Of a stretch of DNA of 45,453 bases, positions 4,133 to 45,453 are shown one piece after another; within the stretch, counting starts at the first letter, position 1, and each line of letters starts with the position of its first letter. This stretch comes from a virus: IMG/VR virus record IMGVR_UViG_3300031555_001699, positions 1 to 45,453 of that record; one strand, given 5' to 3'. The translations under genes were made by a program, and so were the position numbers. Below the pieces are notes generated by a model, which saw nothing but the letters and a program-made list of their open reading frames with translations, ran no database searches and had not been told where the DNA came from.

Positions 4133-5533
4133 ATGGCCAGGCAAATAGTGATTGACTATAAGCCGACGCCGAAGCAAGCACTTTTTCACACGACAGATGC
4201 CGATGAGGTGTTGTATGGAGGAGCAGCAGGCGGCGGCAAGAGCAAAGCGTGCGTAATGGACGCGCTGGCGAGGTGCCTGGCATACCCAAAGAGTCACGCT
4301 TACATTTTCAGAAGGACGTTCCGCGAGTTGGAGGACACAGTAATCGCGGAAGCGAAAGCGAGCTATCCGCAAGGGTTAGGGCGATACGTTGCCGGGCACC
4401 ACGAGTATAGGTTGAACAACGGCAGCGTAATCCACTTCAGGCATTGTGCGAGTGTAGAGGACATGTACACATACGCCGGTGCGGAGATCCATTTTTTGTA
4501 CATTGACGAGCTGACCACGTTCGAGAGGGAGATCTTCGACTTCCTGAAGACGCGCTTGAGAGCGAAAAAGACGCTGGGGCTGGTTCCGGTTGTGCGGTGC
4601 ACGAGTAACCCGGGCAACATCGGCCACGGTTGGGTGAAGGCGTACTTCGTTGATGCAGGTCCGTTCATGGAGAAGATTCGGCATGAGATTGTATCGAGTG
4701 CGTTGGGAGAGACGAAAGTTGTAACGACGCAGTACATACCGAGCCTAGCCACAGAGAACCCGCACATCACGAAGGACTACATATTTGAGCTTGAGAAAAA
4801 GCCAGACGCGCTGCGCCGGGCGTTGTTGATGGGCGAGTGGGACGCATTCGAGGGCCAGGTGTTCCTCGAGTGGAAGGATGACCCGAAGCACTATGTGGAT
4901 AGATTGTGGACACATGTGGTAGAGCCGTTCGATATACCGACGCACTGGCCGCGATACATGAGTTTTGACCATGGCTATTCGAAACCATTCAGTGTTGGTT
5001 GGTGGGCGGTGTCGCCAGACAACGTAGCCTACAGGTACAAGGAATGGTACGGCTGGAACGGCACAGTGAACAAGGGCTGTGAGATGAGCCCAGCGGCGAT
5101 CGCACGCGGGATCATCGACCGCGAGGAGGACGAGCGGCGGAACAACATCGTTGTTGACAGGATAGCCGACCCGGCGATCTTTGACAGGAGCAGAGGCGAC
5201 AGTGTAGCGCAGATGATGGAGCCGCAGGGTGGGAACCCTGGCGTGTACTTCAGGAAAGGCGACAACACGCGCCTGGCCGGCAAGATGCAGTTCCATGAGC
5301 GGCTGCGGTTCGACAAGGACGGTCGGCCGAAGATGCAGATATTCAATACCTGCCGACAGTTTATAAGGACGATCCCCTCGCTGCCATACGACCTGCACAA
5401 GGTCGAGGACGTAGACAGCGATGCGGAAGACCATATTTACGACGAGACCAGATACTTTCTGATGGCGCGCAGTGTACCGGTGAACGATCCGCACGTACCG
5501 AAGAAGAGAGTGTTTGACCCGTTGGCCGACTGA
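4133..5533 (+). CDS. terL: Terminase large subunit
   Basis: 466 aa; Walker A LYGGAAGGGKSKA, Walker B-like HFLYIDELT, C-terminal nuclease-type acidic motifs; SD GGAGGAAGG 5 nt upstream. Confidence 0.9.
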   Translation: MARQIVIDYKPTPKQALFHTTDADEVLYGGAAGGGKSKACVMDALARCLAYPKSHAYIFRRTFRELEDTVIAEAKASYPQGLGRYVAGHHEYRLNNGSVIHFRHCASVEDMYTYAGAEIHFLYIDELTTFEREIFDFLKTRLRAKKTLGLVPVVRCTSNPGNIGHGWVKAYFVDAGPFMEKIRHEIVSSALGETKVVTTQYIPSLATENPHITKDYIFELEKKPDALRRALLMGEWDAFEGQVFLEWKDDPKHYVDRLWTHVVEPFDIPTHWPRYMSFDHGYSKPFSVGWWAVSPDNVAYRYKEWYGWNGTVNKGCEMSPAAIARGIIDREEDERRNNIVVDRIADPAIFDRSRGDSVAQMMEPQGGNPGVYFRKGDNTRLAGKMQFHERLRFDKDGRPKMQIFNTCRQFIRTIPSLPYDLHKVEDVDSDAEDHIYDETRYFLMARSVPVNDPHVPKKRVFDPLAD

Positions 5534-18585: not shown

Positions 18586-19383
18586 TTGGCAAAGATGACT
18601 GTTGAAGAGCTCCAGGCCAACCTCAAAGACCCCAGTTATACCGTGCGAACGGATGAAGAACTGCAGGCGGCGGCGGAGAAGCGATACCAGACCCAGTATA
18701 ATCAGCAGAAGCTGACCGCGCAGCAGAGCTATGAGACGAGCGACCTGGCGTACCAGAACCAGCTGAAAGCACTGCAGGATACCCTGGCGACCAACCAGAA
18801 CACGCTGCTGAAGAATACCATGGACTCTATGGCTGCTGCTGACAGGTACACGATCACCCGCGGCATGCAGCGTAGCAGCTATGGCGCTGCGAACAGGGCA
18901 AATATCCAGAACAAGGGCAACGAGGGCATGGCAGCACTGCTGAAGCAGTACGCCACGGATGCCGGCGGCATTGAAAGCAACCGCACTCTGCTGGCCCAGC
19001 AGCTGGCGAACACCCTGGCCCAGTACGACATCGATTACCTGAACGATGTGCAGGCATATATCGACGAACAGAAGCAGATCGACTACGAGCGCCAGGCAGC
19101 AGCGATCGAAGCGGCGAACGCACTGCAGATGCAGCTGTTTGAGTACAGCCGCCAGTATGGCAGCAGCGGCAGCAGCAGCAGGAAGAAGAGTAGCAGCGGT
19201 GGTGATACCGATTCTACCGGGGATAATTCAGCCAGCGATCTCTATACGCTTCTTGCAGGCTCTAACCTTGCAGGTTCTTCGTCTGAGGTGCGTAAAATTG
19301 CAAACGCCGCAACGATCCTTACCGGCAACAAGATCAAAGATCCCATTGTTGGTGGCAAGGAAAGCGGCAAGTGGAATGGATAA
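18586..19383 (+). CDS. Hypothetical 265-aa Q/N/S-rich protein (possible internal virion protein)
   Basis: ORF track; TTG 18586 five nt after AGGAAGGTGA (alternative ATG 18595). Confidence 0.6.
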   Translation: MAKMTVEELQANLKDPSYTVRTDEELQAAAEKRYQTQYNQQKLTAQQSYETSDLAYQNQLKALQDTLATNQNTLLKNTMDSMAAADRYTITRGMQRSSYGAANRANIQNKGNEGMAALLKQYATDAGGIESNRTLLAQQLANTLAQYDIDYLNDVQAYIDEQKQIDYERQAAAIEAANALQMQLFEYSRQYGSSGSSSRKKSSSGGDTDSTGDNSASDLYTLLAGSNLAGSSSEVRKIANAATILTGNKIKDPIVGGKESGKWNG

Positions 19384-19395
19384 TGGGAGGGCACA

Positions 19396-22300
19396 ATGGC
19401 TGTCCAGAAAAAGAAAAATGAAACGCGTGATGAGGTGCTTTCGAGAGTTTCGAAAGAGTACAATATCACGCCTAAGGCTTCTAAGGCATCTACGAAGGGT
19501 ACTATAATAGCATCTTCCGTTGGTTCTGAACGTACCTATAAAAAGGCAGGCAGCAAGAGCCAGCAGCAGGAAAACAACAAAAACATTGCCCAGAGTGTTG
19601 CGCAGAAGTATAACGCTACCAGAAAGAATACTGGCAAGTGGTATTCTGGGAATACCCCTACGGCGCGAGAGACCATGGCTCGCATGTTTGAAAGGGCAAA
19701 CGGCGATACTGGTTTCTTCAACAAGATGAATGAAATGTTTGCTGCCGAGCAACAGGATCGCGGTTCCGTAATTTACAACCCCTACGCGCAGGCGACCAAC
19801 TACAAGGCGATCGACGGCCTGCGTCAGCTGGGCGTGGAAGTGCCGGAAACCATCTCTGATGAATGGATCGACAGCATGTGGCGGCAGTACGGCCAGTATT
19901 CCCGTGAGACGACCACTGGCTATGGCCCCGGCGCCCCGACCAAGGCTTCTACGGTACAGAACGACATCGCTTACTGGGTGAACACCCTGATGGAGGATAA
20001 GGAAGCCACCAACCTGGCCGAGACTCAGATGCAGGACATGTACACCGAGGTAGAGTACCTGGCCAAGCAGGGTTATAACGATGATGAGATCCTGAAGCGC
20101 GTGAAAGCGAACAAGGATTACAATGCGCTGTGGAAGATGGACGAAGCACGCCTCGCCGGCGATGCTGTGCGCCTGAACCGCAAGGTGAACTACAGCGGCG
20201 ACGACACGATCTACGGCATGATCTGGGCTGCACGCAATGACGGCGGCACCGGCGATTACTTTGTCGATTCCGTGAAGGCGCTGATGGGCCATGGCAACCA
20301 GTATAAGTACGACTCTGCCAGCGCTGCAGCGCTCGACCCGAGCAATTACGAGGGATATTCTCCGTATGTCCGCGGCACCATGCATGAAATGAACATGAAG
20401 TATGGTGTTGACAGCTTCGACCAGACTTGGCTGGAAGCGAACCGCAGCATGCTGAGTGACCCTGAGAAGGCAGAGGACTGGCGCAACATCAAGGAAGCTG
20501 TTGAGCGTTCCGAGTCTGCGGAGAAAGAACTGGCTGCACTGGATCAGTGGCTGGAAAAGCAGATTGCCAGCGGCAGGAAGGATGCACAGAGCCTGGCGGA
20601 TGAACTGACCGCGATGATCAGCGACGGCGACGAGATCCGCTACACTGACGCAGACGGCAAGATGGAAACCATCAAGCTGAGCACGCTGGCCAAGATGGAG
20701 GATTACCGCGCTGACGGCACGTATGTGAACCTGGGCTACGGCGTGGACTTCAACCTGCCGCAGTACATCGCCAAGGCGACCGCCATGTACGACGAGCATG
20801 CAACCGCAGCAGCGGAAACTGAAGCAGAGACCGGTGGCGGTGTGTTCAAGGCTATCGGCGACGGCATCGCAAGCGCCTGGAGATGGCTGACCGGTGACAA
20901 GGGCGCGATGGAGGACGTGATTGACGCCCAGAAGACCGGCGACGTTACGGAGTTTGCGAGCATTGAGGACGCGGCCAGAAAGTACGCCAAGGATATGTTC
21001 GGCGTGGACATCACCGGCGAGCTGCCGGCGCATGTGGAAGCAGCGCTGAAGGATGCGATCGCCAAGGCCAACAAGGCGGACCTGCCCGGCGCCAGCAAGG
21101 AAGATATCGATGCTGCGAACACGGCAGCTGGTGTACTGCAGGATATGTTCAGCGAGGTTATCGCCAACCCGGACATGAGAGCGCAGGAGACCGCAGAGGC
21201 TCCGGCGGAGGAGCCGGCGGAAGCCAACTACAAGGCTCAGCAGGCGTACACCACCGTATTTGAGAAGCAGCCGGAAGAGCCGCGCGAGGGCATGGTGGAG
21301 ATGGTGGCAGAGCCGACGGCATACACCGCAGGCGCTGCAGAACCTGCAGAAGCGAGCCCCGCTGCGGCAAGCTATGAGAGCATGCTGCAGGGCGGCGAGT
21401 GGGACAACGATGCGTTCGTATGGGCGCTCAATGAAAGTTCCAGCCCGAAAGCGATCAAAGCCGAGCTCGGCCAGGCGATCATTGACCACAGAGCCAAGGG
21501 TACTGAGCTTACCGGCCTGGCGAAGAGCTGGTGGAATAAGTTCGGTGGCCTGGTGGACGACATCGGCGGCCCGACGGACTATAACCAGCTGGTTCGATAC
21601 GAGATGGGCTTGGACGAGTACGACAGCCGCAAGGCTTACGGTACGCAGGTGTTCGATCTGCTTCAGGCGAACAGCGAGGCGTATGATTCTTCTGCGATCG
21701 ATGCTGCATCGTGGGCAAACAACCTGATTACCATCTCCGGCATGGCAGAAGCCATCAACAGAGCTGCCGGCGGCGAGCGCGCTACGGACGAGGTTGCCGA
21801 TCGATTCCTGGCCCAGAGTGGCCTGCAGGCAACGGTTGACGGCATGCTCAATACCATTGAGGGCAGCATGGAACGCCAAGCTGCTGACAAGGCTGAGGAG
21901 AATCGCCAGCGTACGACTGCGAGCGTGGGTGTGATCCAGCGTATGAACAGCGGCACGATGACCGAGGATGATTTACTGGCATACGTGGATATCATGAGCA
22001 CGGACATCAGTAAGACCGCTGCGCAGGATAAGACCTATGCTGCTGCCAACGCATACATCATCGATGCGCTGAGTTTTGATAGCATTGCCGAGAGCGGCAT
22101 GCGCTTTACTTATGGCGACAAGGCTGTTGACGCGTCCTACGGCAAGGAGATGGTCCTGAATGAAGGCGCATCCATCTACAGCACGGGCGTTACTGCACTG
22201 GCACAGGACACCCTGAACACGCATATGAAGTACGCCGCTGCATGCGGCATGACGCTGGAACAGTTTTATACCCAGTTCCCGGATCTGGCACGGACGCCTG

Positions 22301-25300
22301 AACAGATCGTAGCGGAAGCGCGCAGCGAGTATAACGGCACCTGGACCGAGTTCGGCCATACGATCGACGGCCTGATAGCTGCCAACGACAGCATCTTCAA
22401 CGCCGGTGAGGGCGCAGGCGCTCCCGGGGATGAAAAGGAAGATGTGCTGAGCTTCAGCGACAGCCTGGTGCTCGCGTTCGACAAGCTCCGGGCGACTAAT
22501 GCGCTGAACTGGGACAAGACGCTCTACATGATGCAGTACGCCTGGCGTGACGAAGAGATGGAGCAGGGCATACTGCTCGATCAGTACGGTGGCCGCACTG
22601 CGCTGGCTGCTGAGTGGGACAAGTTTGATGCTGAGCGCGAAGAGCAGCTGCGCAAGACCTACGAGAACGATATCACTGCCAAGCAGAGTGGCATCAGCTA
22701 CGAGGACTGGCGGCTGGAGAACACCGACAAGCAGCTGGACGAGGTGCGCGCCAAGCGCGAGACTGCAACGGATATCCTGGAGCTGGGCGATCCGGCAAGG
22801 CTGCGCGCAGAGCAGGGTATCATTGAGAAGACCGGCAATGTAGCGAACATCGATAAGCTGGTAGCCGAGTACGGCAGCGAGTTTGACAAGGCTGTCTACG
22901 ATGGTGCGACCAGCCTGATGCAGACTGGCCAGTTTATGTTCATTAGCACTGTGCTGGGCGGCGGATACATGGCTTCCCTGGCTGCAACGCTGACCAGCTC
23001 CGGCAGCGACGCATACGACCGATTCATCCAGACCGGCGACTATGACGCAGCCCTGGCAAGCAGCATCGGTGCATGGCTCGTGAACGCGGCTATTGAGAAG
23101 ATGAGCTTCGAGAGGTACATGCCTGAGAGCCTTGGCGGTAGCCGCACGCAGAAGATGCAGGCAGTGCAGAGCATGCTGCAGCGCGAGGGCATGTATAGTA
23201 TGCTCAAAGATCCGAAGAAGCTGTCCAAGGCAGCAACGGCTGTGATGGAGGCAATCGCCACTGCCGGCGTGAACAGCGCCAGTGAAGGTCTGGAGGAGAC
23301 CCTGCAGTACATTGTGGACTCTTTTGCGGACAACATTGCATACGGCGACAATATCTGGCTGACCGATGAGCAGGTATCCGGCATTGATGATACCTTCGTA
23401 GCGGGTACTGCAATGGGCGCAGTGCTCGATGTGGGCACCAACCTGGTGTTTGGTCGTCCGAAGTTCACTGACGAGCTGGGCAACGCGATCTCTAAGGCCG
23501 AAGCACAGATACGTCCCGAACACGATGGTGTTCTGCTGAACGAGGCGATCAAGTTTGAGGCGACGAGCATGGCGTATGTGAACAGCACAGACGCACTCGC
23601 CCAGATTGAGAGCAGCAGCGAGAACGCCGCCAAGCAGCAGGCGGAGCAGGAGCTGCAGGCTGTTGAAGCTGAATTGCAGGAAACGGAAGCAAAACTTGCA
23701 AGCGTGCAGGCGGAACATGATACCGCTATCATGGCGCTGGAAGATGTGAACGTAGAGATGCAGGACAGCGATGCGTTTACCGAGGACATGGGCAAGCGCA
23801 TGACCGCAGCAGCGACCGAGGTTGACCGAACCACGGCTGAGCTCAGAAAGGTCAAGGACGACCTGAGCAGCGCACAGGGCCGCAGGGAAGCCGCCCAGCA
23901 GAAGCTAGACGATGCGACCGCCAAGGTTCAGGCGATGTACGATCAGGTGATGGACGAGGCCAAGCAGAAGTACACCCAGATTGTGACCGACAAGTACTAC
24001 GCAGGCGACAGCGACGAACAGCGCGCCGCCGGCGAGGCGTACCAGGCAGCCTGCGCGAATCTGGAAGAAGCAAAGGCCGCACTGGCTACAGTGAAAGCTG
24101 ATGAGAATGCCGGTGCGAAGGAGCGCGGCAGGGCACTGCTGGATGTGGATAAGGCGACCGAGGCTGTGGAAGCAGCCAAGGCTGAGATGGATGCGGCATA
24201 CGCCCAGAGCCCGGAGGGCAAGGTGGAAGCTGCGACCAATAAGGCGCTGGAGGATGCGCAGAAAGCAGCGGACGATGCAGCGGCAGCAGCAGAGGCTGAC
24301 CCGATGAACAGCCGCAAGCAGCTGGCAGCAGAGCATGCACAGGCGCAGCTGGATGTGATCCGAGCCAAGCAGGAGATGGAAGAGAAGCGCTCCGGCATCA
24401 GCTTCCGCCTGAAGAGCCCGGATAGCAGCGAGCGCGAGGCAGCCGTTGGCGAGTGGAAGGCTGCCCAGCAGAAGGTAACCGATGCTGAAGAGCATGCCAA
24501 GGCCGTCGAGACCGAGTTCAACGAGACGGACACCCAGAAGAACCTGCAGACCGCGATCGACAACATGAAGCAGTACACCAACGAGCAGCTGTTGTTTGAG
24601 AGCGAGGAGGGGCACGAGGATGCTGTACGGGCCTATGCTGAACTGCAGGTGGCGCAGGCTGCAGCAGAAGTTGAAAATGCCTGGAATGGCATGTTGAAGG
24701 ACGGAGCCAGTGGACTGTCCGCTTACCAAGATGCAAGAAATAAGTATAATTCTGCTATTGACAATAAAAATGCCATGAATTATACTAAAAATGGGGAGGT
24801 ATATGATTATGGCAATGAAAGCGAAGGAATATATGGCGAAAATGTACGCGGAACATCCGGAATTGCCGGAGATGGTAGCGGAAGTAGAACGACTGTACGG
24901 GGCTCGGATTCAGTTCCCCTGTATGGTGATCGAGGCATTGCTCGACGGAATGACGCCGGCGGAAGTGGCAGCGGACAGCGCGTTGATGGATCTGTAAGGT
25001 ATGCGTCTACGGCGGGTATTACAGATGTAACTGCAACACCCGAGGAATATATTCAAGCATTGGATGCAGCAAAGGCAGCGCCCCCGGAAGACGGTCATCA
25101 GGTAAGCCCGCATAAGGTAGAAGAAGTGATGCGGGGAGATCTGCGTCCGTTCCTGACCAGCGATAAACTTGCAGGCTTCGCTGTAGAAGCCAATGGCAAC
25201 ATTACTGGTGTTTTTAGGAACCCCAAGAGTAAACTGGGCCCAGTAATGGACGATATGATGCTTTCTGCGATTCAAGAAGGTGGCAATCGATTGGATTGTT

Positions 25301-28300
25301 ATGCCGGTGACCTGTTTAACGATGGACTCAATAACAAAGACCGCATCGGCCCCCTCGTGAACAAGTATGCAAAGTATGGATTTAAGCCCGTGGCGGTTGT
25401 GAAATACAATGCTGAATACGCAGAAAGTGACAAGGTGCAGGATGTTATATTTTTCATCCATAACGGCAAGAGTGTAATGGAAATTAAGGCCGACCTTGAG
25501 GCGGGTGACTATGAACAGTACACGCCTGATGACCTGCTTGCGCTTAAAACGTTTGGATTGGATGACCCCGATGCTTACGACAATGCAGCCAAATACCGCG
25601 ATGGTTTGATTGAACAGCACAATTCTGACATCCAGGCCTGGCGAAATATCGGCGACGGCTTCGGTGATCACCGTACCCCCGGCAGGACCGGAGAGACCAC
25701 CACTGCTGACCGCAACCCGATCGAGATCCTGAGCGATCTGACCAGGCGGATCGGCGTGGGCTATAACCCCGGCGGCGACATGAGCACGAACGGCAGACGC
25801 TTGCCGCGTGCAGTGCAGGGCTTCTACAGCCGACATGCACGGGCGATCACGACCAGAGGCGCGAACGCCGGAGACCTGGAGGTCGGCCTGCATGAGTTTG
25901 GACATGCTGTACAGCAGCGACTGCCGAACCTGCATGCCAACACGCAGCTGTTGAACGGCCTGAGCCAGGGCGTGCGCAATGCATACGACCAGCAGGAGCT
26001 GGACGGCGAAGCGATCGCTGAGTTCGTGGTAGACTACATCTTCAACCGCGACGAGGCGGTGCGCCAGGCAGGCGCTCAGTTCGTGCAGGACTTCGAGGAC
26101 ATGCTGGCCAACGACCGCACGTTGTATGATGCAATCATGGACGCCAGCCACCAGACCGAGCTCTGGAACAACGCAGACACCGGCAGCAAGATCGGCGCCA
26201 TGACGAAGGACGGCAACGACCCGCGCCGCGGCCAGATCGGCAACTGGCTCTCCCGCACGCTGCGCAACGTGGAAACCGCCGTTGCGGACCTGACCGCGCC
26301 GGCAGACCTGGTGAGCAGGGACTTCCGCAGGAGAGCACTGTACAGTATGCACGCAAGCCGCAGGGCAGACGTGAGCCTGACCCGGTTCCTGATCGACCCG
26401 CAGGGCCGGAACATCGGCCAGAGCCTTGCAGAACGATTCTATCGCGCAGGCGTGACAGAGGGCGACCAGGCTGAGGTGAGCCGCTACGCGCTGGCCAAGC
26501 ATGCACTTGACCGCCGTGCGCAGAACAGGGACGTATTCACCGAGGCTGAGTTTCCGACCGCAGAACTGGAAGCATACGTTGCTGATATAGAGGCGAACCA
26601 CCAGAACATCGTGGCCGGCGCAAACGCACTGACCAGCTTCTGGAACGACTTCATGGATGCATGGTGGGTCGGCACCGGCATGATTGACGCAGAGGATGTG
26701 GCGACCATGCGCGCGATGTACCCGCATTACGTGCCCACGTTCCGCGTGATGGGCGAGAACTTCAACCAGTACGGCGGCGGCAACGCCCGCTTCCAGATGC
26801 GCAGAGCCGTAGTGGGCGGCAGCAGCCTGGAAGTGATCGATCCGATCGCCAGCATCGTAAAGATGACCCAGCAGATGACCAGCACGGTTACTCAGAACCA
26901 GCTGATGCGCGAGTTCCACGAAGAGTGGCGGCGCGGCGGCCTGGGCGACATCGCTGAGGACGTGACCCAGCAATATCGCGTGCAGCGTAACGACACAACC
27001 AACATGCAGGCAGCTCTGGACGCGATCGCAGCGACCGGCATGGTTGATCCTGCGCTGATGGGCGACGCCTATGCACAGATGCTGAATCTGCAGGAGCACT
27101 GGTATGGAACCGGACAGAACTACGATGCGAACGTTGTAAGCGGCGTAGACGAGAACGGCAACCGCTTCTTCTACAAGATCAAGGACAGAGGCCTGTACAA
27201 CCTGCTGAGCGGCGCGGCAAACAGGAGCGGCGACATGGGCGCAATCCTGCGGACCGTGCGCAACATCAAGAATGGCTTCACGAAAATGACCACCGGCAGC
27301 AACCCGCTGTTCGCGCTCAAGAACCTGCAGCGCGATATCCAGGCCAGCGTGAATACCGGCACGCACAGCATGACCTACGCAGACGGCATATATCACTGGG
27401 CACGCGCCTTCTATGAAGTGCTGACCGGCAGTGAAACCTACCGCGACTGGCAGGCGATGGGCGGCGGCGAGCACACCCGCTTCAATACTGAGCTGAACGG
27501 CCAGGAAGCAGGCAGAGTGGTGCGCGAACTGAGCAGAGATCTGATGCGCGGCAGGGAGAACCGCAGAGGCAACTTCCAAACCCGGAACACGGCACTGGAG
27601 AACATCAGCAATGTTCTGACCTGGGAAGAACTGAACAATGCCATTGAAAACGCCAGCAGATATGTGGAGTACCGCTTCGGTAGGCATGACCTGAACACCG
27701 ATGAAGGCCGCAGAGAGGCATTCATGGCCAGCCAGGATGTGACCACAAATTTCGGCACTCACGGCGCAAGCGGCGTAATCAAGGTGCTCAATCAGGTGGT
27801 TCCCTTCATGAACGCCACCATCCAGGGCCTGAATAAGGACGCGAACATCATCCGCGACGTATTTAGCACTGATGCGAACAGGCGCAGACAGGCAGCGCCG
27901 AAGGCTGCCAAGACCATGATGAACACTGCCCTGACCGCCATGCTGCAGTACGCACTGCTGAAGATGTTCGGCAGCAACGAGGACGACGAGGACTACGCAC
28001 TGCTGAGCCAGGAGATGCGCACCGGCAACCTGATCATCCCGATCGGCAAGGGCGCAATGGAGGAACTGGGCGACGTGATCGGATTCGACAAGCCCTACAT
28101 CCGTATCCCGATCGCGCAGGTCCCGCTGGCGCAGGGCATGTATGCCAAGGCACTGGATATCGTATCCGACGTGGCGAACTACAGCCCGATGGAAGTTGAC
28201 ATGTGGCGCGCAACGAAGAGCATCCTTGCTGACAGCATACCGGACGGCACTGTGTTCCAGGCGATCAGCGATGCAGCCAACAACCGCACCTGGTACGGCG

Positions 28301-28968
28301 GCGAGATCGAGAGCGAGTACATGCGCAACTACAGCGTGACCAACCGCTACGACAGCGATACTCCGAATGCGATCATCCAGCTCGGCCAGAGCCTGAATGT
28401 ATCCCCGGCCAAGCTGGACTACCTGCTGAACCAGTACAGCGGCTTCGCCGGCAAGATTTTGATGCCGCTGATCAGTGCTGGCAGACTGGATGGCGAGTAC
28501 AGCTTGCGCAATGCGGGTGAGAACCTGGTCTACAACGTACTGAAGAATTACACGATCGACCCGGTGAGCAGCAACGACCTGAGCACCAGCTACAGTTCCG
28601 CCAAGGATACGATCAGCCAGATCGTAGCTGACGGCAAGGCAGGCAAGCCGATGGGTAACCTGGCCTACAGCGCTGACCCGGAAGAGGCTTACGACGCTGC
28701 CGAGTACCTGAGCAAAGAGTTCGCCGCCCTAGACAAGGAAATCTCCGCACTGTGGAGCGAGTACAACGCCATCAAGGAAAGCGACCTGAGCGACGGCGAC
28801 AAGGCCAGGCAGATGCGCGACCTGCGCAGGAACTACATTGTGCCCCTCCAGCAGGATGCGATGGCGCTGTATGAGGAGTATAAGATGCAGTACATCGATG
28901 CTGACTCGCTGGCGCTGGAGATCTATGGCCGGCTGCCTGGCGGCCTAACCAGACCCACTCTCGACTAA
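19396..28968 (+). CDS. Giant 3,190-aa polyvalent-type protein (probable virion-packaged/ejected multi-domain effector)
   Basis: Single uninterrupted ORF with SD GGGAGGG. Segments: basic N-terminus; Gly-rich hydrophobic segment (nt about 22930-23000); Ala/Glu/Lys coiled coil of about 380 aa (nt about 23600-24720); G/S/R linker; acetyltransferase-like segment (nt about 25140-25470); zincin motif GLHEFGHAV (HEFGH = nt 25891-25905); about 1,000-aa C-terminal domain. Confidence 0.85.
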   Translation: MAVQKKKNETRDEVLSRVSKEYNITPKASKASTKGTIIASSVGSERTYKKAGSKSQQQENNKNIAQSVAQKYNATRKNTGKWYSGNTPTARETMARMFERANGDTGFFNKMNEMFAAEQQDRGSVIYNPYAQATNYKAIDGLRQLGVEVPETISDEWIDSMWRQYGQYSRETTTGYGPGAPTKASTVQNDIAYWVNTLMEDKEATNLAETQMQDMYTEVEYLAKQGYNDDEILKRVKANKDYNALWKMDEARLAGDAVRLNRKVNYSGDDTIYGMIWAARNDGGTGDYFVDSVKALMGHGNQYKYDSASAAALDPSNYEGYSPYVRGTMHEMNMKYGVDSFDQTWLEANRSMLSDPEKAEDWRNIKEAVERSESAEKELAALDQWLEKQIASGRKDAQSLADELTAMISDGDEIRYTDADGKMETIKLSTLAKMEDYRADGTYVNLGYGVDFNLPQYIAKATAMYDEHATAAAETEAETGGGVFKAIGDGIASAWRWLTGDKGAMEDVIDAQKTGDVTEFASIEDAARKYAKDMFGVDITGELPAHVEAALKDAIAKANKADLPGASKEDIDAANTAAGVLQDMFSEVIANPDMRAQETAEAPAEEPAEANYKAQQAYTTVFEKQPEEPREGMVEMVAEPTAYTAGAAEPAEASPAAASYESMLQGGEWDNDAFVWALNESSSPKAIKAELGQAIIDHRAKGTELTGLAKSWWNKFGGLVDDIGGPTDYNQLVRYEMGLDEYDSRKAYGTQVFDLLQANSEAYDSSAIDAASWANNLITISGMAEAINRAAGGERATDEVADRFLAQSGLQATVDGMLNTIEGSMERQAADKAEENRQRTTASVGVIQRMNSGTMTEDDLLAYVDIMSTDISKTAAQDKTYAAANAYIIDALSFDSIAESGMRFTYGDKAVDASYGKEMVLNEGASIYSTGVTALAQDTLNTHMKYAAACGMTLEQFYTQFPDLARTPEQIVAEARSEYNGTWTEFGHTIDGLIAANDSIFNAGEGAGAPGDEKEDVLSFSDSLVLAFDKLRATNALNWDKTLYMMQYAWRDEEMEQGILLDQYGGRTALAAEWDKFDAEREEQLRKTYENDITAKQSGISYEDWRLENTDKQLDEVRAKRETATDILELGDPARLRAEQGIIEKTGNVANIDKLVAEYGSEFDKAVYDGATSLMQTGQFMFISTVLGGGYMASLAATLTSSGSDAYDRFIQTGDYDAALASSIGAWLVNAAIEKMSFERYMPESLGGSRTQKMQAVQSMLQREGMYSMLKDPKKLSKAATAVMEAIATAGVNSASEGLEETLQYIVDSFADNIAYGDNIWLTDEQVSGIDDTFVAGTAMGAVLDVGTNLVFGRPKFTDELGNAISKAEAQIRPEHDGVLLNEAIKFEATSMAYVNSTDALAQIESSSENAAKQQAEQELQAVEAELQETEAKLASVQAEHDTAIMALEDVNVEMQDSDAFTEDMGKRMTAAATEVDRTTAELRKVKDDLSSAQGRREAAQQKLDDATAKVQAMYDQVMDEAKQKYTQIVTDKYYAGDSDEQRAAGEAYQAACANLEEAKAALATVKADENAGAKERGRALLDVDKATEAVEAAKAEMDAAYAQSPEGKVEAATNKALEDAQKAADDAAAAAEADPMNSRKQLAAEHAQAQLDVIRAKQEMEEKRSGISFRLKSPDSSEREAAVGEWKAAQQKVTDAEEHAKAVETEFNETDTQKNLQTAIDNMKQYTNEQLLFESEEGHEDAVRAYAELQVAQAAAEVENAWNGMLKDGASGLSAYQDARNKYNSAIDNKNAMNYTKNGEVYDYGNESEGIYGENVRGTSGIAGDGSGSRTTVRGSDSVPLYGDRGIARRNDAGGSGSGQRVDGSVRYASTAGITDVTATPEEYIQALDAAKAAPPEDGHQVSPHKVEEVMRGDLRPFLTSDKLAGFAVEANGNITGVFRNPKSKLGPVMDDMMLSAIQEGGNRLDCYAGDLFNDGLNNKDRIGPLVNKYAKYGFKPVAVVKYNAEYAESDKVQDVIFFIHNGKSVMEIKADLEAGDYEQYTPDDLLALKTFGLDDPDAYDNAAKYRDGLIEQHNSDIQAWRNIGDGFGDHRTPGRTGETTTADRNPIEILSDLTRRIGVGYNPGGDMSTNGRRLPRAVQGFYSRHARAITTRGANAGDLEVGLHEFGHAVQQRLPNLHANTQLLNGLSQGVRNAYDQQELDGEAIAEFVVDYIFNRDEAVRQAGAQFVQDFEDMLANDRTLYDAIMDASHQTELWNNADTGSKIGAMTKDGNDPRRGQIGNWLSRTLRNVETAVADLTAPADLVSRDFRRRALYSMHASRRADVSLTRFLIDPQGRNIGQSLAERFYRAGVTEGDQAEVSRYALAKHALDRRAQNRDVFTEAEFPTAELEAYVADIEANHQNIVAGANALTSFWNDFMDAWWVGTGMIDAEDVATMRAMYPHYVPTFRVMGENFNQYGGGNARFQMRRAVVGGSSLEVIDPIASIVKMTQQMTSTVTQNQLMREFHEEWRRGGLGDIAEDVTQQYRVQRNDTTNMQAALDAIAATGMVDPALMGDAYAQMLNLQEHWYGTGQNYDANVVSGVDENGNRFFYKIKDRGLYNLLSGAANRSGDMGAILRTVRNIKNGFTKMTTGSNPLFALKNLQRDIQASVNTGTHSMTYADGIYHWARAFYEVLTGSETYRDWQAMGGGEHTRFNTELNGQEAGRVVRELSRDLMRGRENRRGNFQTRNTALENISNVLTWEELNNAIENASRYVEYRFGRHDLNTDEGRREAFMASQDVTTNFGTHGASGVIKVLNQVVPFMNATIQGLNKDANIIRDVFSTDANRRRQAAPKAAKTMMNTALTAMLQYALLKMFGSNEDDEDYALLSQEMRTGNLIIPIGKGAMEELGDVIGFDKPYIRIPIAQVPLAQGMYAKALDIVSDVANYSPMEVDMWRATKSILADSIPDGTVFQAISDAANNRTWYGGEIESEYMRNYSVTNRYDSDTPNAIIQLGQSLNVSPAKLDYLLNQYSGFAGKILMPLISAGRLDGEYSLRNAGENLVYNVLKNYTIDPVSSNDLSTSYSSAKDTISQIVADGKAGKPMGNLAYSADPEEAYDAAEYLSKEFAALDKEISALWSEYNAIKESDLSDGDKARQMRDLRRNYIVPLQQDAMALYEEYKMQYIDADSLALEIYGRLPGGLTRPTLD
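24791..24997 (+). CDS. Embedded +1-frame ORF (60-68 aa) inside the giant gene; possible overlapping gene or relic
   Basis: GGGGAGG 24793-24799 precedes ATG 24803/24809/24815; product MAMKAKEYMAKMYAEHPELPEMVAEVERLYGARIQFPCMVIEALLDGMTPAEVAADSALMDL has ordinary composition. Hand-counted GC3 is 66 percent in this frame versus 35 percent in the giant-ORF frame over the same bases. Confidence 0.3.
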   Translation: MGRYMIMAMKAKEYMAKMYAEHPELPEMVAEVERLYGARIQFPCMVIEALLDGMTPAEVAADSALMDL

Positions 28969-28993
28969 CCAACACCGAAAGGAGCGTCCGAGT

Positions 28994-29251
28994 ATGAACA
29001 TCAAAAAGAAGTTCCCCGACCTGGCTGACATGGACGCTCTGGAACTGGCAAAGCTGCTGCGGCGGTCGACCCTATCCCGGGAAGACCGCCAGATAGCGGT
29101 CAGCTGCTTCCAGTGGAGCATGGACTACATTGATGTAGGCGCTAAGGTAGGTATGGACCGGCGGACGGTGAGCCGCCATATGAACGAAGATATCGTTCCG
29201 GCACTGCGCAGGCTGCGGGCGAAAAGTTGCCCGAAAGTTGCACACGGATAG
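28994..29251 (+). CDS. Small HTH protein (sigma-70 region-4 / LuxR-like)
   Basis: 85 aa; DRQIAVSCFQWSMDYIDVGAKVGMDRRTVSRHMNEDIVPAL resembles a region-4 type HTH; SD AAAGGAG. Confidence 0.6.
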   Translation: MNIKKKFPDLADMDALELAKLLRRSTLSREDRQIAVSCFQWSMDYIDVGAKVGMDRRTVSRHMNEDIVPALRRLRAKSCPKVAHG

Positions 29252-29271
29252 GACATAATTGCCCCCGGCAA

Positions 29272-29340
29272 AATCCCCTTTCTGAGATGATGTATTCAGA
29301 ACCAAGGATGGTTCGAATCATTCAAATCAGAAAGGGGATT
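29272..29340 (+). promoter_or_regulatory. Long hairpin whose 3' arm contains the SD of the downstream gene (attenuator/translational control candidate)
   Basis: Perfect 14-bp inverted repeat AATCCCCTTTCTGA (29272-29285) / TCAGAAAGGGGATT (29327-29340); inner helix ATTCaGAACC/GGTTCGAAT; followed by GTTTTATG, where ATG 29346 is the next start. Confidence 0.55.
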
Positions 29341-29345
29341 GTTTT

Positions 29346-29813
29346 ATGGGTGAATTTGCAAGCAAGGGTGTTGGTGCAGCAGGCTTGACCACTGGCATCA
29401 TCGGAACTGCATTCGGCGCAATGAATAGCGGCATCCTGCCGAACCTGTTTGGCGCTGGCCGCGCTGGCTGCTGCGATAGCGACAGTATGCCGGTAAGCCG
29501 CTACGAACTGAGCCAGGAATCAAAGATTGCTGATCTGCAGGCACAGATTGCACTGCGTGACGCGAATACCTACAACGACCAGAAGCTGCTGGAAGTATAC
29601 AAGTACTTCGATGGCAAGATTGAGGGCATCAACAGCAGACTGTGCGACCAGGCTGTCTGGAATGCAACGCAGACCGGTGCAATTAACTGCATGGCCAACC
29701 AGATTGCACAGCTGCAGGGCTTGACCAAGCTGGTTGTGCCGAACACCAGCGTGTGCCCCGGTTGGGGTAATGTGACCATCACCCCGGCTGCAGCGGCAAC
29801 CGCGACCACCTGA
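29346..29813 (+). CDS. Hypothetical 155-aa protein with N-terminal glycine-zipper segment and coiled coil
   Basis: ORF track; GVGAAGLTTGIIGTAFGAMNSG glycine-zipper-like; Cys-containing C-terminal part. Confidence 0.65.
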   Translation: MGEFASKGVGAAGLTTGIIGTAFGAMNSGILPNLFGAGRAGCCDSDSMPVSRYELSQESKIADLQAQIALRDANTYNDQKLLEVYKYFDGKIEGINSRLCDQAVWNATQTGAINCMANQIAQLQGLTKLVVPNTSVCPGWGNVTITPAAAATATT

Positions 29814-40687: not shown

Positions 40688-41401
40688 TCACCTCAGCAGA
40701 TCGGTGATATCGCAGCCCAGCAGCTCGCATACTCGGGTGAGCGCATTGCCCGCCGGTGCATGGGTGCCGTTCTTCCAGCGGAAGACGCTGCGCTTATCCA
40801 CACCGGCCAGATCCGCGAATTCATCAACAGTGAGATCTTCTTCGACCATGTAGACGGTAATCTTGCGGCCGATCTTCTCACGATCAAGCAGGGCATGGGC
40901 TGCGCCGTTGCCGGCAGCGACGTGACGGGGCTCCAGGCGCCCCTCCGCCTGCGCAGCCAGCGCACGGTCCAGCGCGGAGTGACGGGGCACGCGCTGCTTG
41001 AGCTCGCCGAGCATATCCGCCATCGCATCCATGGCCGCGTGCAGCTCTGCCATAGCGTTGGTGACGGCGCCGGGCTGGACGTACATACCCGTGCGGCGGA
41101 TGGCCGGCAGTACATCGTGCGTGATCCAGCGCTTGAAGGCGTGGGCCTCGGGCTTGCGGCTGCCAAGGATCAGGGTGTAGAGACCGGGTTCGTTGACCAC
41201 ATTGACCGGGAGACCGTTACTGGCACCCTCGATTGAAACTAGGGTGCGCTCGTCATCATCGAGTCTGTTGAGAGCGTCGGAAGGGTTCGCGATATCCAGC
41301 GCCTTGCAAACGTCTGCGGCCACAAACCAGGGATCGCCGTCCTTTACTACGGTACGGATGGTGCCAAACTGTTCATTCTTGAAAAGCTGAAGATTATTCA
41401 T
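40688..41401 (-). CDS. Bro-N domain antirepressor with C-terminal XRE-type HTH
   Basis: ATG 41401; FGTIRTVVKDGDPWFVAADVCKALDIANPSDALNRLDDDE...GLYTLILGSRKPEAHAFKRWITHDVLPAIRRTG is classic Bro-N; C-terminal LTVDEFADLAGVDKRSVFRWKNG is the HTH. Confidence 0.88.
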   Translation of the reverse strand: MNNLQLFKNEQFGTIRTVVKDGDPWFVAADVCKALDIANPSDALNRLDDDERTLVSIEGASNGLPVNVVNEPGLYTLILGSRKPEAHAFKRWITHDVLPAIRRTGMYVQPGAVTNAMAELHAAMDAMADMLGELKQRVPRHSALDRALAAQAEGRLEPRHVAAGNGAAHALLDREKIGRKITVYMVEEDLTVDEFADLAGVDKRSVFRWKNGTHAPAGNALTRVCELLGCDITDLLR

Positions 41402-41415
41402 TGTCAGGTTCCTCC
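41394..41415. repeat. 22-bp direct repeat copy A: TTATTCATTGTCAGGTTCCTCC (start codon plus SD, minus strand)
   Basis: Identical to 41959-41980; covers the ATG and SD of the Bro-N gene. Confidence 0.9.
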
Positions 41416-41966
41416 TCTGCAGGGTTAGTATTGATAACAGATTTTGCGAGTTGAATTGCTGCGCGATAAACAGAGCCATGCTGAGCTTCGCCGTAAACCA
41501 TATCTACTCGTTTAGCAAATGCATCCAGCGTATCGTGGAAACAACCACACACAACCATGGTTTCGCCATCATTACGACGATAGAATGTAGTGTAATCCTT
41601 ACGCGAACCGATCGGTCCAACAACCAGGTGATCTGCGTTGCCGGACACCCTTGCGTCGCCGTACACCCTTGCGTCGCCGTACACCCAGGCGTCGCCGTAC
41701 ACCCAGGCGTCGCCGTACACCCTTGCGTTGCCGGACACCCTTGCGTCGCCGGACACCCTTGCGTCGCCGTACACCCTTGCGTTGCCGTACACCCAGGCGT
41801 TGCCGTACACCCAGGCGTTGCCGGACTGACTAAGGTTTGCCTCTTTTTCGATCCAGCCGCCGAGATCGCCGGCATTTACATCACCGAACGAAATGAGCGC
41901 CTTGATTTGGAAAAGCTTCCGACCGAACAGCATCTTTGTGTTGGTGGTGAGTTCGTACTTATTCAT
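41394..41966 (-). CDS. Beta-helix (hexapeptide G[DN]A[RW]V[YS]) repeat protein, first gene of the early operon
   Basis: ATG 41966 after TGGAGGAAC; GNAWVYGNAWVYGNARVYGDARVSGDARVSGNARVYGDAWVYGDAWVYGDARVYGDARVSGNA = 11 consecutive hexads. Confidence 0.8.
   Translation of the reverse strand: MNKYELTTNTKMLFGRKLFQIKALISFGDVNAGDLGGWIEKEANLSQSGNAWVYGNAWVYGNARVYGDARVSGDARVSGNARVYGDAWVYGDAWVYGDARVYGDARVSGNADHLVVGPIGSRKDYTTFYRRNDGETMVVCGCFHDTLDAFAKRVDMVYGEAQHGSVYRAAIQLAKSVINTNPAEEEPDNE
41635..41826. repeat. About 10.6 copies of an 18-bp tandem DNA repeat (coding, in frame)
   Basis: Units start every 18 bp from 41635 to 41815: GCGT[CT]GCC[GG/GT]ACACCC[TT/AG]; they encode the hexapeptide repeats. Confidence 0.9.
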
Positions 41967-41980
41967 TGTCAGGTTCCTCC
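41959..41980. repeat. 22-bp direct repeat copy B
   Basis: Identical to 41394-41415; covers the ATG and SD of the beta-helix gene. Confidence 0.9.
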
Positions 41981-41985
41981 ATTTA

Positions 41986-42014
41986 TTGCTATTTAAATAG
42001 TGTTCTGATAAAAT
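41986..42014 (+). promoter_or_regulatory. Possible rightward promoter antisense to the early leader
   Basis: -35 TTGCTA 41986-41991, 17-nt spacer, extended -10 TGaTAAAAT (42009-42014); overlaps the 12-bp perfect palindrome CTATTTAAATAG 41989-42000. Confidence 0.3.
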
Positions 42015-42152
42015 GGGACTGCCTGGGTGACCAGGTAGAAAGGAGGAGGGCATGCACAGAAGAACCTGTCACAGCGTTACGATCACCATCAATATCATCG
42101 TATCGCTTGGCGGGGCACTGGATAGCCTTAGCTCCGTGCTGTTCCGTCTCCG

Positions 42153-44029: not shown

Positions 44030-45453
44030 ATGGATATTTACGCAGACTACCTGCGCAAGTCCCGGTCAGATGAGCAGGCCGAGGCCCGCGGCGAGGGCGA
44101 TGTACTGGCCCGGCACCGCAAGACGCTGCAGGAGCTGGCCGCCTACAACGGGCACATGCTCGTTGCCGAATACGCCGAAGTCGCCAGCGGCGACAGCCTC
44201 GCAGCCAGGCCGGAGGCGCAACGCCTGCTGCTGGATGTGATGGCAGGCAAGTATACCGGCGTTTACTGTATGGCCCTTGACCGACTCAGCCGCGGCGCTG
44301 CAGAGGATCAGGCCGCCGTGATCCGGGCCTTCCAGGCCTCCGGCACACTGCTGATTACGCCCGAGAAGGTCTATGACTTCACCAACGCCGCCGACGAGGA
44401 TTTCGGCGAGCTGCGCCTGATGTTCAGCCGCATTGAGCACAAGACCATCAAGCGCCGCATGTACGCAGGCCGCGAGCGCTCCGCCCGTGATGGCTGGTAT
44501 ATCGGCGCGCGCATCCCGTTCGGATACGCCAAGGTACCCGCCCAGGGCAAGGACGGCCCCACGCTTAAGATCATCCCCGAGCAGGCTGAGCTCGTCCGCG
44601 CCATGTTCGAGGCCTACGCCGACGGCAAGAGCTCGCACCATATCGCCGACATGCTCAACGCGCAGCCCGTCAAGCCCAACTACAGCGACACCTGGACACC
44701 GTCCACTATCCGCAACATTCTCCGCAATCCGCTGTACATCGGCAAAATCTCCTGGGGCAAGCGCATCTCCAGACCGGCCCCCGACGGCAGCGCACACCGC
44801 GTCGTCAACAGCCGCGCTATCCTGGCCGACGGCAGGCATGAGCCCATCATCACTCAGGCCCTGTGGGACGCTGTGCAGGCCCGCCTTGAGCGCAACCCTG
44901 CACCGACCATCTCTGAGGGCCTCCAGAATCCCCTACAAGGGCTTGTGCGCTGCGGCCTATGCGGTTGTCTAATGCAGCGCAGCCCGGCCCAGAAGAGCCC
45001 TTCTGGGCGCTCTCAGCCCGCAATACTCAAATGCACTACGCATGGATGCAAGCAAATCCGGTCTGATCTAGCTGTGATCGAGGATATGATCCTGCAGAGC
45101 ATGGATGCATGCTATGGCCATGAAGGCGAGCTTTCCCCGGTGCAGATCCAGCAGCGCAAAGACCGCCAGAAGGCTGCCAAGCTGATCTTTGACCAGATCA
45201 AGCAGGCAGAAGCGCAGCAGAGCCGCCAGGCGGACTTATTAGAACAGGGTGTGTACACGGTCGAGGATTTTATCAGCCGCAGAAACGCGCTGTCTGAGAG
45301 GCTCAGAGAGCTTCACAGACGCTACGACGAGGCGACAGCGCCCGACCTGATGGATCAGGCCTATGAGGCGTGGCGGCAGATCGTCCCGCGGAGCAGCACT
45401 GTCAGCGAGGCCTACAGGCGCGCACCTGACAACGCAACCAAGAATGCATTGCT
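44030..45453 (+). CDS. int: Large serine recombinase (integrase), N-terminal 474 codons; open at the window end and continues at 1-236
   Basis: ATG 44030 seven nt after GAAGGGAGG. Hand translation MDIYADYLRKSRSDEQ...ALDRLSRG (resolvase catalytic domain), GWYIGARIPFGY recombinase domain, Cys cluster CGLCGCLMQR...LKCTTHGC zinc ribbon, C-terminal coiled coil. Not in the ORF track because no stop is reached. Confidence 0.92.
   Translation, partial: MDIYADYLRKSRSDEQAEARGEGDVLARHRKTLQELAAYNGHMLVAEYAEVASGDSLAARPEAQRLLLDVMAGKYTGVYCMALDRLSRGAAEDQAAVIRAFQASGTLLITPEKVYDFTNAADEDFGELRLMFSRIEHKTIKRRMYAGRERSARDGWYIGARIPFGYAKVPAQGKDGPTLKIIPEQAELVRAMFEAYADGKSSHHIADMLNAQPVKPNYSDTWTPSTIRNILRNPLYIGKISWGKRISRPAPDGSAHRVVNSRAILADGRHEPIITQALWDAVQARLERNPAPTISEGLQNPLQGLVRCGLCGCLMQRSPAQKSPSGRSQPAILKCTTHGCKQIRSDLAVIEDMILQSMDACYGHEGELSPVQIQQRKDRQKAAKLIFDQIKQAEAQQSRQADLLEQGVYTVEDFISRRNALSERLRELHRRYDEATAPDLMDQAYEAWRQIVPRSSTVSEAYRRAPDNATKNAL
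45327..45453. repeat. Terminal overlap copy 2 (identical to 1-127)
   Basis: See copy 1. Confidence 0.95.

Follow-up and report, generated by a model that had tools for sequence, protein, structure and literature searches.

Genes that lie inside other genes are known in phages, examples being Rz1 of lambda, which lies in Rz in the +1 frame, and the overprinted genes of phiX174. Phages also carry morons, which are promoter-gene-terminator units inserted in late operons (lambda, HK97, P2-like), and small proteins paired with GNAT-fold enzymes are known from the type II GNAT toxin-antitoxin (TA) pairs, AtaR-AtaT, TacA-TacT and KacA-KacT. Polyvalent proteins have been described with GNAT domains among their components, accreted from solo modules (Iyer, Burroughs, Anand, de Souza and Aravind, 2017; PMC5512222). 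Embedded genes, morons, polyvalent proteins and GNAT TA pairs are thus all known, while no account of a nested gene in polyvalent proteins was found in open-access full text, and their combination there appears not to have been described previously. The subject of the present work is IMG/VR virus record IMGVR_UViG_3300031555_001699 (positions 1 to 45,453; this whole stretch of 45,453 nucleotides (nt) is termed the window), in which a 62-amino acid (aa) protein is almost certainly encoded by a real nested gene, with a dual-coded spacer, inside the gene of a giant polyvalent protein and just upstream of its GNAT-like domain. The features concerned are the following.

19396-28968, + strand: giant polyvalent-protein gene, 3190 aa (9.6 kb), the final large gene of the virion module
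24758-24786, + strand: sigma-70/sigma-A-type promoter-like site, -35 TTGACA (24758-24763), 17-nt spacer, -10 TATACT (24781-24786), 11/12 match
24793-24799, + strand: Shine-Dalgarno (SD) sequence GGGGAGG, 9 nt 5' of ATG 24809, unchanged in the related contig L001
24809-24997, + strand: small gene nested within the giant gene (+1 frame), encoding 62 aa, acidic and helical (MAMKAKEYMAKMYAEHPELPEMVAEVERLYGARIQFPCMVIEALLDGMTPAEVAADSALMDL)
24808-24996, + strand: Gly/Ser/Arg/Asp-rich spacer of the giant protein (aa 1805-1867), dual-coded, with frame 0 continuing through the small gene
24997-25640, + strand: GNAT acetyltransferase-like domain of the giant protein (aa 1868-2082), AlphaFold2 model with pLDDT 89.5 and pTM 0.87

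The case for the nested gene is carried by a comparison of the window with L001 (80.7% nucleotide identity to window 24720-29067), the two having diverged by about 25% over the small open reading frame (ORF). The ratio of nonsynonymous to synonymous substitution rates (dN/dS or omega; Nei-Gojobori) is 0.16 in the small frame (dN 0.18, dS 1.09); in the giant frame it is 2.0 over the same bases and 0.11 in both the upstream and the downstream flank. Substitutions are distributed over giant-frame codon positions 1/2/3 as follows.

24720-24802: 1/1/7
24803-24997: 26/13/8
24998-25140: 8/8/28
25141-25640: 35/25/95

Counted by embedded codon position, those in the small ORF number 13/8/25, and it is therefore precisely along the small ORF that the wobble position moves into the +1 frame, returning at the stop codon of that ORF. 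Base composition gives the same signature, with GC contents at codon positions 1, 2 and 3 (GC1/2/3) of 0.61/0.34/0.66 for the embedded frame, compared with 0.65/0.62/0.35 for the giant frame over the same bases and 0.60/0.42/0.72 for the giant gene as a whole. A preliminary description of the window, made from its letters, had held that the codon signal favours the embedded frame; this is borne out by composition and by substitutions that follow the small-frame phase, and its values (GC3 of 66% versus 35%) and its coordinates for GGGGAGG, the ATG codons and the stop were all reproduced. Eleven alternative-frame ORFs of at least 55 aa lie inside + strand genes, among which only the small ORF shows a coding GC1/2/3 pattern (0.59/0.35/0.66).

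The giant frame contains no stop codon across the small ORF in either the window or L001, for which the chance, given the small protein and the codon usage of the genome, is 0.09 and 0.016, respectively. The spacer peptides, which in the full-length giant protein include GTSGIAGDGSGSR, are only 55% identical in aa between the two, and this, together with the giant-frame dN/dS of 2, shows that the spacer sequence itself is unconstrained. Giant-frame constraint is back at the codon right after the small-gene stop, and the C-terminal part is therefore made by read-through and not from a separate start. The 189-nt segment 24809-24997 is dual-coding, its sequence being constrained by the +1-frame protein while the giant frame is only kept stop-free.

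This arrangement recurs in other phages. A profile scan of viral contigs yielded 79 loci, of which the 60 with strong domain matches (L005-L064) were analysed by a uniform script, and a +1-frame ORF of 38-73 aa is present in 59 of them; retention of this ORF by homologues was one of the points on which the preliminary description had staked its proposal. Nearly all related loci have an SD of the form xGGAGG, 8-9 nt and mostly exactly 8 nt before the start, which is ATG in nearly all, the small-ORF GC1/2/3 is about 0.55/0.30/0.70 across loci, and in most of them 45-57 nt separate the small-ORF stop from the domain. Two distant loci (L005, L006) have TTGACA-17-TATGAT or TACGAT, then AGGAGG, a +1 ORF of 49 or 73 aa and the domain, with the large frame open through the small ORF as a G/S/D/R-rich stretch, and the nested arrangement is common to polyvalent proteins in which the domain is only 30-45% identical. 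In eight independent families the small-frame omega is 0.06-0.35 and the large-frame omega 0.65-5.7, the small protein being better conserved than the large-frame peptide in all eight. Across the small ORF the large frame is free of stops in 36/36 non-redundant loci, compared with 2.3 expected from simulation, and this openness is evidently under selection.

In several loci (L022, L028, and also L035 and L043-L046; ~2590-2944) there are two tandem +1-frame small ORFs, an ORF like that of L020 (...EEIEEQYLF*) followed by an SD and a second ORF (MSQQEQKEF...YYIEF), with an 11/12 promoter site before the first. Candidate copies are also seen in the cultured Microbacterium phages Caron (L086 2256-2399; OQ190481.1 ~4591-4734), UtzChips and Barnstormer, as a 47-aa acidic +1 ORF (MALPITEEERLAFLRRQEPTATPEELSQLRATVWTDEALEAAILSGW) that is unannotated, lies over a G/R-rich stretch inside gene 4, annotated 'minor capsid protein', and ends about 100 nt before the domain. 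This candidate is conserved with 3 aa changes, and with only 7 substitutions the frame test is underpowered.

It is hardly credible that the small ORF is instead a decaying relic or a chance ORF whose composition was left from a recent insertion. The cassette does have a GC3 (0.49) well under that of its flanks (0.73 and 0.80), as would foreign DNA, but the omega of 0.16 was obtained at 25% nucleotide divergence, purifying selection is seen in eight families, the ORF, the SD and the open large frame are kept in 59/60 loci, and the product folds confidently. The GC3 dip is, moreover, also found in L001, so that it predates the split of the window from L001 and is not recent. The preliminary description had offered an overlapping gene or a recent relic as alternatives, of which the former stands and the latter is refuted.

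With a small ORF that lies wholly inside 19396-28968 and two frames that are both kept by selection, the locus has what characterises an embedded overlapping gene. Like Rz1 and the phiX174 genes, the small ORF has a start of its own and is contained, complete, in the +1 frame of a larger gene, with selection on both frames. Unlike them, it is the small frame that dictates the sequence, the large frame being only an open spacer (giant-frame omega ~1-5), and the nested gene appears to have its own consensus promoter in the codons of the host gene. Its likely origin is also different, by fusion around a pre-existing gene and not by de novo overprinting, and the small gene has no homology to Rz1 or to any known embedded gene.

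Translation of the small gene would begin at a conserved site. The +1-frame ATG codons at 24803, 24809 and 24815 lead to the stop TAA 24995-24997, and an extra in-frame ATG at 24791 would give a 68-aa version and that at 24803 one of 64 aa. ATG 24803 is ATA in L001, and the conserved start is ATG 24809, 9 nt past the SD, such that the ORF put at 60-68 aa in the preliminary description is real and is fixed at 62 aa, while the first of the ATGs that it listed is not conserved. GGAGG-N5-10-ATG is found at most true gene starts of this genome, including those of the terminase and of the giant gene itself. The start region has no RNA structure (z=-0.15) and no match in an Rfam search. The +1-frame product contains the peptides EYMAK and MYAEHPELPEMVAEVER, and AlphaFold2, given two sequences, models the 62-aa product as a compact five-helix unit (pLDDT 87.9, pTM 0.72). 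The protein database already lists this product as a called gene, with a 100% identical entry (L002-L004, which are identical to window 24733-27057) and a 74% identical entry (L001), and independent gene callers report the small ORF on contigs L001-L004. The small ORF, or a protein beginning at the domain, is gene-called only where a contig edge truncates the giant ORF, and on long contigs the junction is intact. Contigs L001-L005 start 55-110 nt 5' of the small ORF, and this was considered as a recombination or assembly breakpoint and rejected as ascertainment bias.

The same details bear on whether the +1 ORF might be reached by programmed frameshifting, giving a truncated N-terminal isoform that ends in a small helical domain, with GGAGG as the stimulator. 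Internal SD-like sequences do stimulate frameshifting in dnaX and prfB, and the ORF is always in the +1 frame, but a +1-frame stop (TGA 24776) lies between the -35 of the promoter-like site and the start codon in the window, and about half of the loci have such a stop no more than 30 nt from the start, in many cases after the SD and before the ATG. The ATG 8-9 nt from the SD is conserved, no conserved slippery motif or RNA structure is present, and free-standing versions begin with their own ATG, all of which makes frameshifting a very improbable explanation.

The promoter-like site upstream of the SD encodes ...I-D-N...Y-T... in the giant frame. A consensus scan of 19000-29500 returned only two + strand sigma-70-type sites, both at the small-gene junction, the second and weaker one being as follows.

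24723-24750, + strand: promoter-like site TTACCA-16-TATAAT, 10/12 match, significance uncertain

The -35 of this weaker site is changed in L001 (ATACCA), and the main site and the SD are conserved there. The pattern TTGACA-N16-18-TATAMT has two sites in the 45-kb genome, against 0.01 expected, and the other, a second perfect TTGACA-17-TATACT on the - strand (42273 to 42245), heads a leftward primase/helicase/NTP-pyrophosphohydrolase operon and is probably an early/middle promoter. A site that matches the promoter at 10/12 or better lies within ~160 nt upstream at 28 of the 36 non-redundant junctions, where the same-strand background is 0.011 per 130 nt, and three more have an 11/12 site further upstream, before an extra tandem small ORF. 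Of 29 sites with high scores, 28 share one codon phase (xTT GAC Axx ... TAY NNT) and a spacer of 17 nt. The residues encoded at the site vary (I/V/L; N/D/T/S/A), and at each of two wobble positions the T that matches the promoter is found in 29/29, compared with ~30% background, although these wobble statistics come from loci pre-selected on promoter score and the unbiased figure is 28/36 versus 0.011. It is quite likely, to judge from this conservation, that the small gene's own promoter is functional.

The promoter-like site also accounts for a feature that had been read differently. The GC content is 30.0% at 24721-24780 and 35.0% at 24781-24840, as the preliminary description had it, and 61.7% at 24301-24360, where it had given 63%; in a 200-nt profile the minimum is 0.42 at 24700-24899, followed by 0.45-0.53 to ~25600, with 0.57-0.66 in the surroundings. 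The low GC had been taken as the mark of a splice, and the match of its 5' edge to a sigma-70-type promoter had been overlooked; we infer that this edge is a conserved intragenic promoter and not a splice scar.

The same site weighs on the improbable reading that the small protein serves the giant protein as a chaperone for folding, assembly or packaging and is produced from the late mRNA by internal initiation, with the promoter motif incidental or secondary. The strong internal SD would permit translation from the late transcript, the giant gene lies within the virion module, and phage structural modules often encode small chaperones beside their clients. Such a role leaves the conserved consensus -35/-10 pair, with its exact 17-nt spacer, unexplained, however, and free-standing domains of 170-240 aa, which need no giant-protein assembly, also have a small acidic neighbour. 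A host-type promoter-like site in a late structural operon, and apparent mobility between phages as suggested by GC3 and by a 234-bp patch described below, are what the unit has in common with morons. Unlike these it lies inside coding sequence, is without a terminator (no terminator-like site was found downstream on the + strand) and has to stay translatable in a second frame.

The domain that follows the small gene had been guessed to be acetyltransferase-like, and this proved well founded. The AlphaFold2 model, for which a 19-sequence alignment was used, has as its top Foldseek PDB matches exclusively GNAT acetyltransferases (9mto, 2zxv, 8gxf, 1yvk, RimJ 6c37 and others; prob 1.00, E 1e-4 to 1e-3, TM 0.42-0.60). 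A GNAT fold is supported for the block at the fold level by this model, and its enzyme activity is only predicted. When aa 1868-2098 were searched exhaustively with HMMER, 545 cluster representatives matched at E<=1e-3 and 184 at E<=1e-10, mostly within proteins of 1500-3900 aa and 33-48% identical, in which the domain is combined with LPD38, PBECR3, MuF_C and Zeta_toxin. The domain is assigned to phrog_2563 in PHROGs, a family of unknown function, it had no match in a PDB sequence search, and free-standing distant relatives in Streptomyces phages carry the annotation 'acetyltransferase'. A word-indexed protein search with the 24718-25690 segment, including the low-complexity spacer, gave no match; this empty result reflects a failure of sensitivity and not an absence of relatives, given the 545 found by the exhaustive search, and it is likely that the spacer swamped candidate selection. 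Single sequences or two-sequence alignments run against viral, genome and metagenome collections likewise returned no related loci.

The small proteins themselves fall into about five families plus singletons (phmmer), and all are acidic, with D+E exceeding K+R in every one. Besides their acidity they are alike in being helical and in a helix motif at the C-terminus, G-x-[ST]-[PD]-x-E-[IVL], and the profile of the largest family matches 103 database clusters, none of them functionally named. DUF6171 was considered as a family for the small protein and rejected as not significant (Pfam E=0.003, 18 bits versus a cutoff of 27).

Free-standing versions of the pair are also found. In a 129-kb phage contig (L066) a 59-aa acidic ORF lies 18 nt upstream of the gene for a stand-alone domain protein of 218 aa, and L071 and L072 are similar. 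In a Clostridia bin (L091 3845-4751) a 234-aa stand-alone GNAT-like protein has a 71-aa acidic ORF downstream that overlaps its stop by 14 nt, a gene order opposite to that of the nested arrangement. A distant relative of 126 aa in Streptomyces phage TinaBelcher (gp79-gp78; L087 1248-1890), annotated as an acetyltransferase, comes after a 58-aa hypothetical protein. A two-gene module of small protein plus enzyme is therefore a reasonable ancestor, and the free-standing pairs do not polarise the direction. The capture of a foreign two-gene module, as initially proposed, gains support from such pairs (L066, L071, L091) and loses its recency and its restriction to this phage; nor was a free-standing two-gene ancestor, which had been expected at the nucleotide level, returned by blastn of 24500-25900 against phage and plasmid collections, where there was no match. 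Whatever the flanks, the GC3 of the domain regresses to about 0.55, lying below them in the window and in L001 (0.51 versus 0.74) and above them in low-GC phages (P=0.004), which suggests that the module moves between phages.

An alternative in which the nested gene is expressed independently and its product is unrelated to the GNAT-like domain would give this product an early role in anti-defence or host takeover, small, acidic and helical as it is, like a DNA-mimic or anti-restriction protein, with a strong host-type promoter fixed there by chance. The acidity of all of the small proteins and their fast diversification into several families are typical of conflict proteins, the promoter consensus is of the same type as that of the replication operon, and an SD and small ORF occur alone in a jumbo phage that lacks the domain. 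Yet the position upstream of this one domain is nearly fixed, in 59/60 loci whose host-protein architectures otherwise differ, the giant gene of the window has no other nested ORF of this kind, the free-standing domain copies also have small acidic ORFs beside them, and no match was obtained to Ocr, ArdA or any defence-related family or fold. This alternative is unlikely, if not negligibly so.

Taken as a whole, and with most weight on its structural core, the best explanation is that of an independently expressed nested gene whose product partners the GNAT-like domain, and it is held with somewhat more confidence than doubt. Ribosomes on the late operon would read the giant frame as a flexible Gly/Ser/Arg/Asp spacer straight into the GNAT-like domain. 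Host RNA polymerase would recognise TTGACA-17-TATACT within the codons of the giant gene, producing a short-leader transcript on which ribosomes start at GGGGAGG-9nt-ATG 24809, and the small protein could thus be made without, and probably before, expression of the late structural operon; internal initiation on late mRNA could be a further source of it. The small protein would be dedicated to the GNAT-like domain as its partner, most likely inhibiting it or neutralising it in the manner of an immunity protein, and would restrict the time and place of action of the packaged and injected acetyltransferase, whether in a freshly infected cell after transcription of the phage DNA has begun, in the cell that produces the phage or in one that already harbours the element. 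A two-gene module of small protein and enzyme, fused into polyvalent proteins long ago, is the probable source of the unit.

The specific role of the small protein as partner or neutraliser is put forward tentatively, with more doubt than confidence, because of its fixed adjacency to the domain in three genomic contexts and by analogy with antitoxin/GNAT-toxin and effector/immunity pairs. The likeness to type II GNAT TA pairs would lie in a small gene directly upstream of a GNAT-fold enzyme, a promoter-like site before the small gene, and free-standing pairs with short gaps or overlaps. Unlike the antitoxins, the small protein is without an RHH/DUF1778 domain (Pfam, NCBIfam, PADLOC), is all-helical with no N-terminal strand, and is acidic, and the enzyme is not detectably of the TA GNAT family by sequence and is a domain of a 3190-aa virion protein.

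Several observations weigh against a nested gene whose product acts on its neighbour. Promoter use and translation are deduced from sequence and conservation, part of the latter being the wobble statistics with their pre-selected loci, and the tie between the small protein and the GNAT-like domain is their conserved linkage. The -10 ends 22 nt before the ATG in the window, which implies a leader of ~15 nt with the SD at its extreme 5' end. The window type of small protein and the largest family are not demonstrably homologous (hhalign E=0.022, probability 2%), and a single partner family is therefore not established; the small proteins have no match to Pfam, NCBIfam, PADLOC or PHROG families, and a fold search in PDB and BFVD gave nothing below E=3. 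On the side of the domain, Pfam and NCBIfam models have no match over aa 1868-2098, and the loop after strand 4, where GNATs have the acetyl-CoA pyrophosphate-binding motif Q/R-x-x-G-x-G/A, is not canonical, being RNPKSKLGPV in the window and KNxxGGPxxA in many relatives. Lastly, a 234-bp patch in a jumbo phage (L092 5966-6199, also L096, on contigs of 126-131 kb) is 94% identical to L023 2763-2996 and comprises only the SD and the small ORF, here of 48 aa, with the -1 frame closed and no GNAT-like domain nearby; the small gene can therefore exist without a GNAT-like domain encoded in cis. In L096 the small-ORF stop is lost, extending it to 73 aa, and ~2.8 kb upstream is without called genes.

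A wider proposal, more speculative and on the unlikely side, is that such genes, each with a host-type promoter and an SD in a second frame of the giant gene, form an unannotated class of 'intragenic morons' in the polyvalent proteins of many phages of Clostridia, and possibly of actinophages, whose products are cognate inhibitors or immunity factors of injected GNAT-like effectors. If this were true, phages would have a built-in timer in which the effector enters together with the DNA and the antidote comes from transcription of that DNA, and cells carrying the element could be immune to the effectors injected by related phages. If the small protein regulates the adjacent domain, effector/antidote logic would operate inside injected polyvalent proteins. 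The nested gene itself represents hidden gene content, a conserved gene missed by standard annotation inside a longer ORF, as with the candidate copy in the Microbacterium phages, which, being cultured, offer an experimental system. Its dual coding is unusual in that the nested frame is the informative one, the host frame is a stop-free spacer and what looks like a consensus promoter is superimposed on codons, providing a natural case in which a promoter, a ribosome-binding site and two reading frames would share one sequence. Scans of dN/dS in giant phage genes would misread such a segment as positive selection (omega >=2 in the annotated frame).

The host protein was rightly called polyvalent in the preliminary description, as is seen from a domain near its C-terminal end.

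27985-28485, + strand: LPD38 domain (aa 2864-3030), Pfam PF18857, E=5e-17, 63 bits versus a cutoff of 27

LPD38 is the sole Pfam match within the giant ORF and marks phage-type polyvalent proteins, and the giant gene follows genes for terminase, portal, major head, internal virion and tail proteins. A 3190-aa protein with LPD38 and a GNAT-like domain, encoded beside virion genes in a phage genome, has the domain make-up and the gene setting of this group, whose members would also be packaged and delivered with the DNA. It is, like those described, a giant multidomain protein of the virion module with LPD38 and a GNAT-type domain; unlike in that account (PMC5512222), which contains no nested genes, internal promoters, overlaps or small partner ORFs, there is a nested small gene here, and the GNAT-like family is one without a Pfam model. 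The two ends of the window, positions 1-127 and 45327-45453, match at 100% identity along 127 nt, from which it follows that this is a complete phage genome of ~45.3 kb that is circularly permuted (or terminally redundant). Clostridia genome bins hold relatives of the domain, with 2 matches in the genome collection, both from uncultured organisms and one of them (L090) nested, and Clostridia hosts are consistent with the canonical sigma-A promoters and strong SDs.

Elsewhere in the genome, at least nine tandem 18-nt repeats (TGCGTCGCCGTACACCCT-like) lie at 41616-41849, within a - strand gene at 41394-42053 (phrog_7964, function unknown), and would be translated as a repeated hexapeptide. A 22-nt sequence, TTATTCATTGTCAGGTTCCTCC (reverse complement of GGAGGAACCTGACAATGAATAA), occurs in identical form at 41394-41415 and 41959-41980, by which two - strand ORFs (starts 41401 and 41966) have one identical SD/start region, possibly as a duplicated gene head or as alternative starts.

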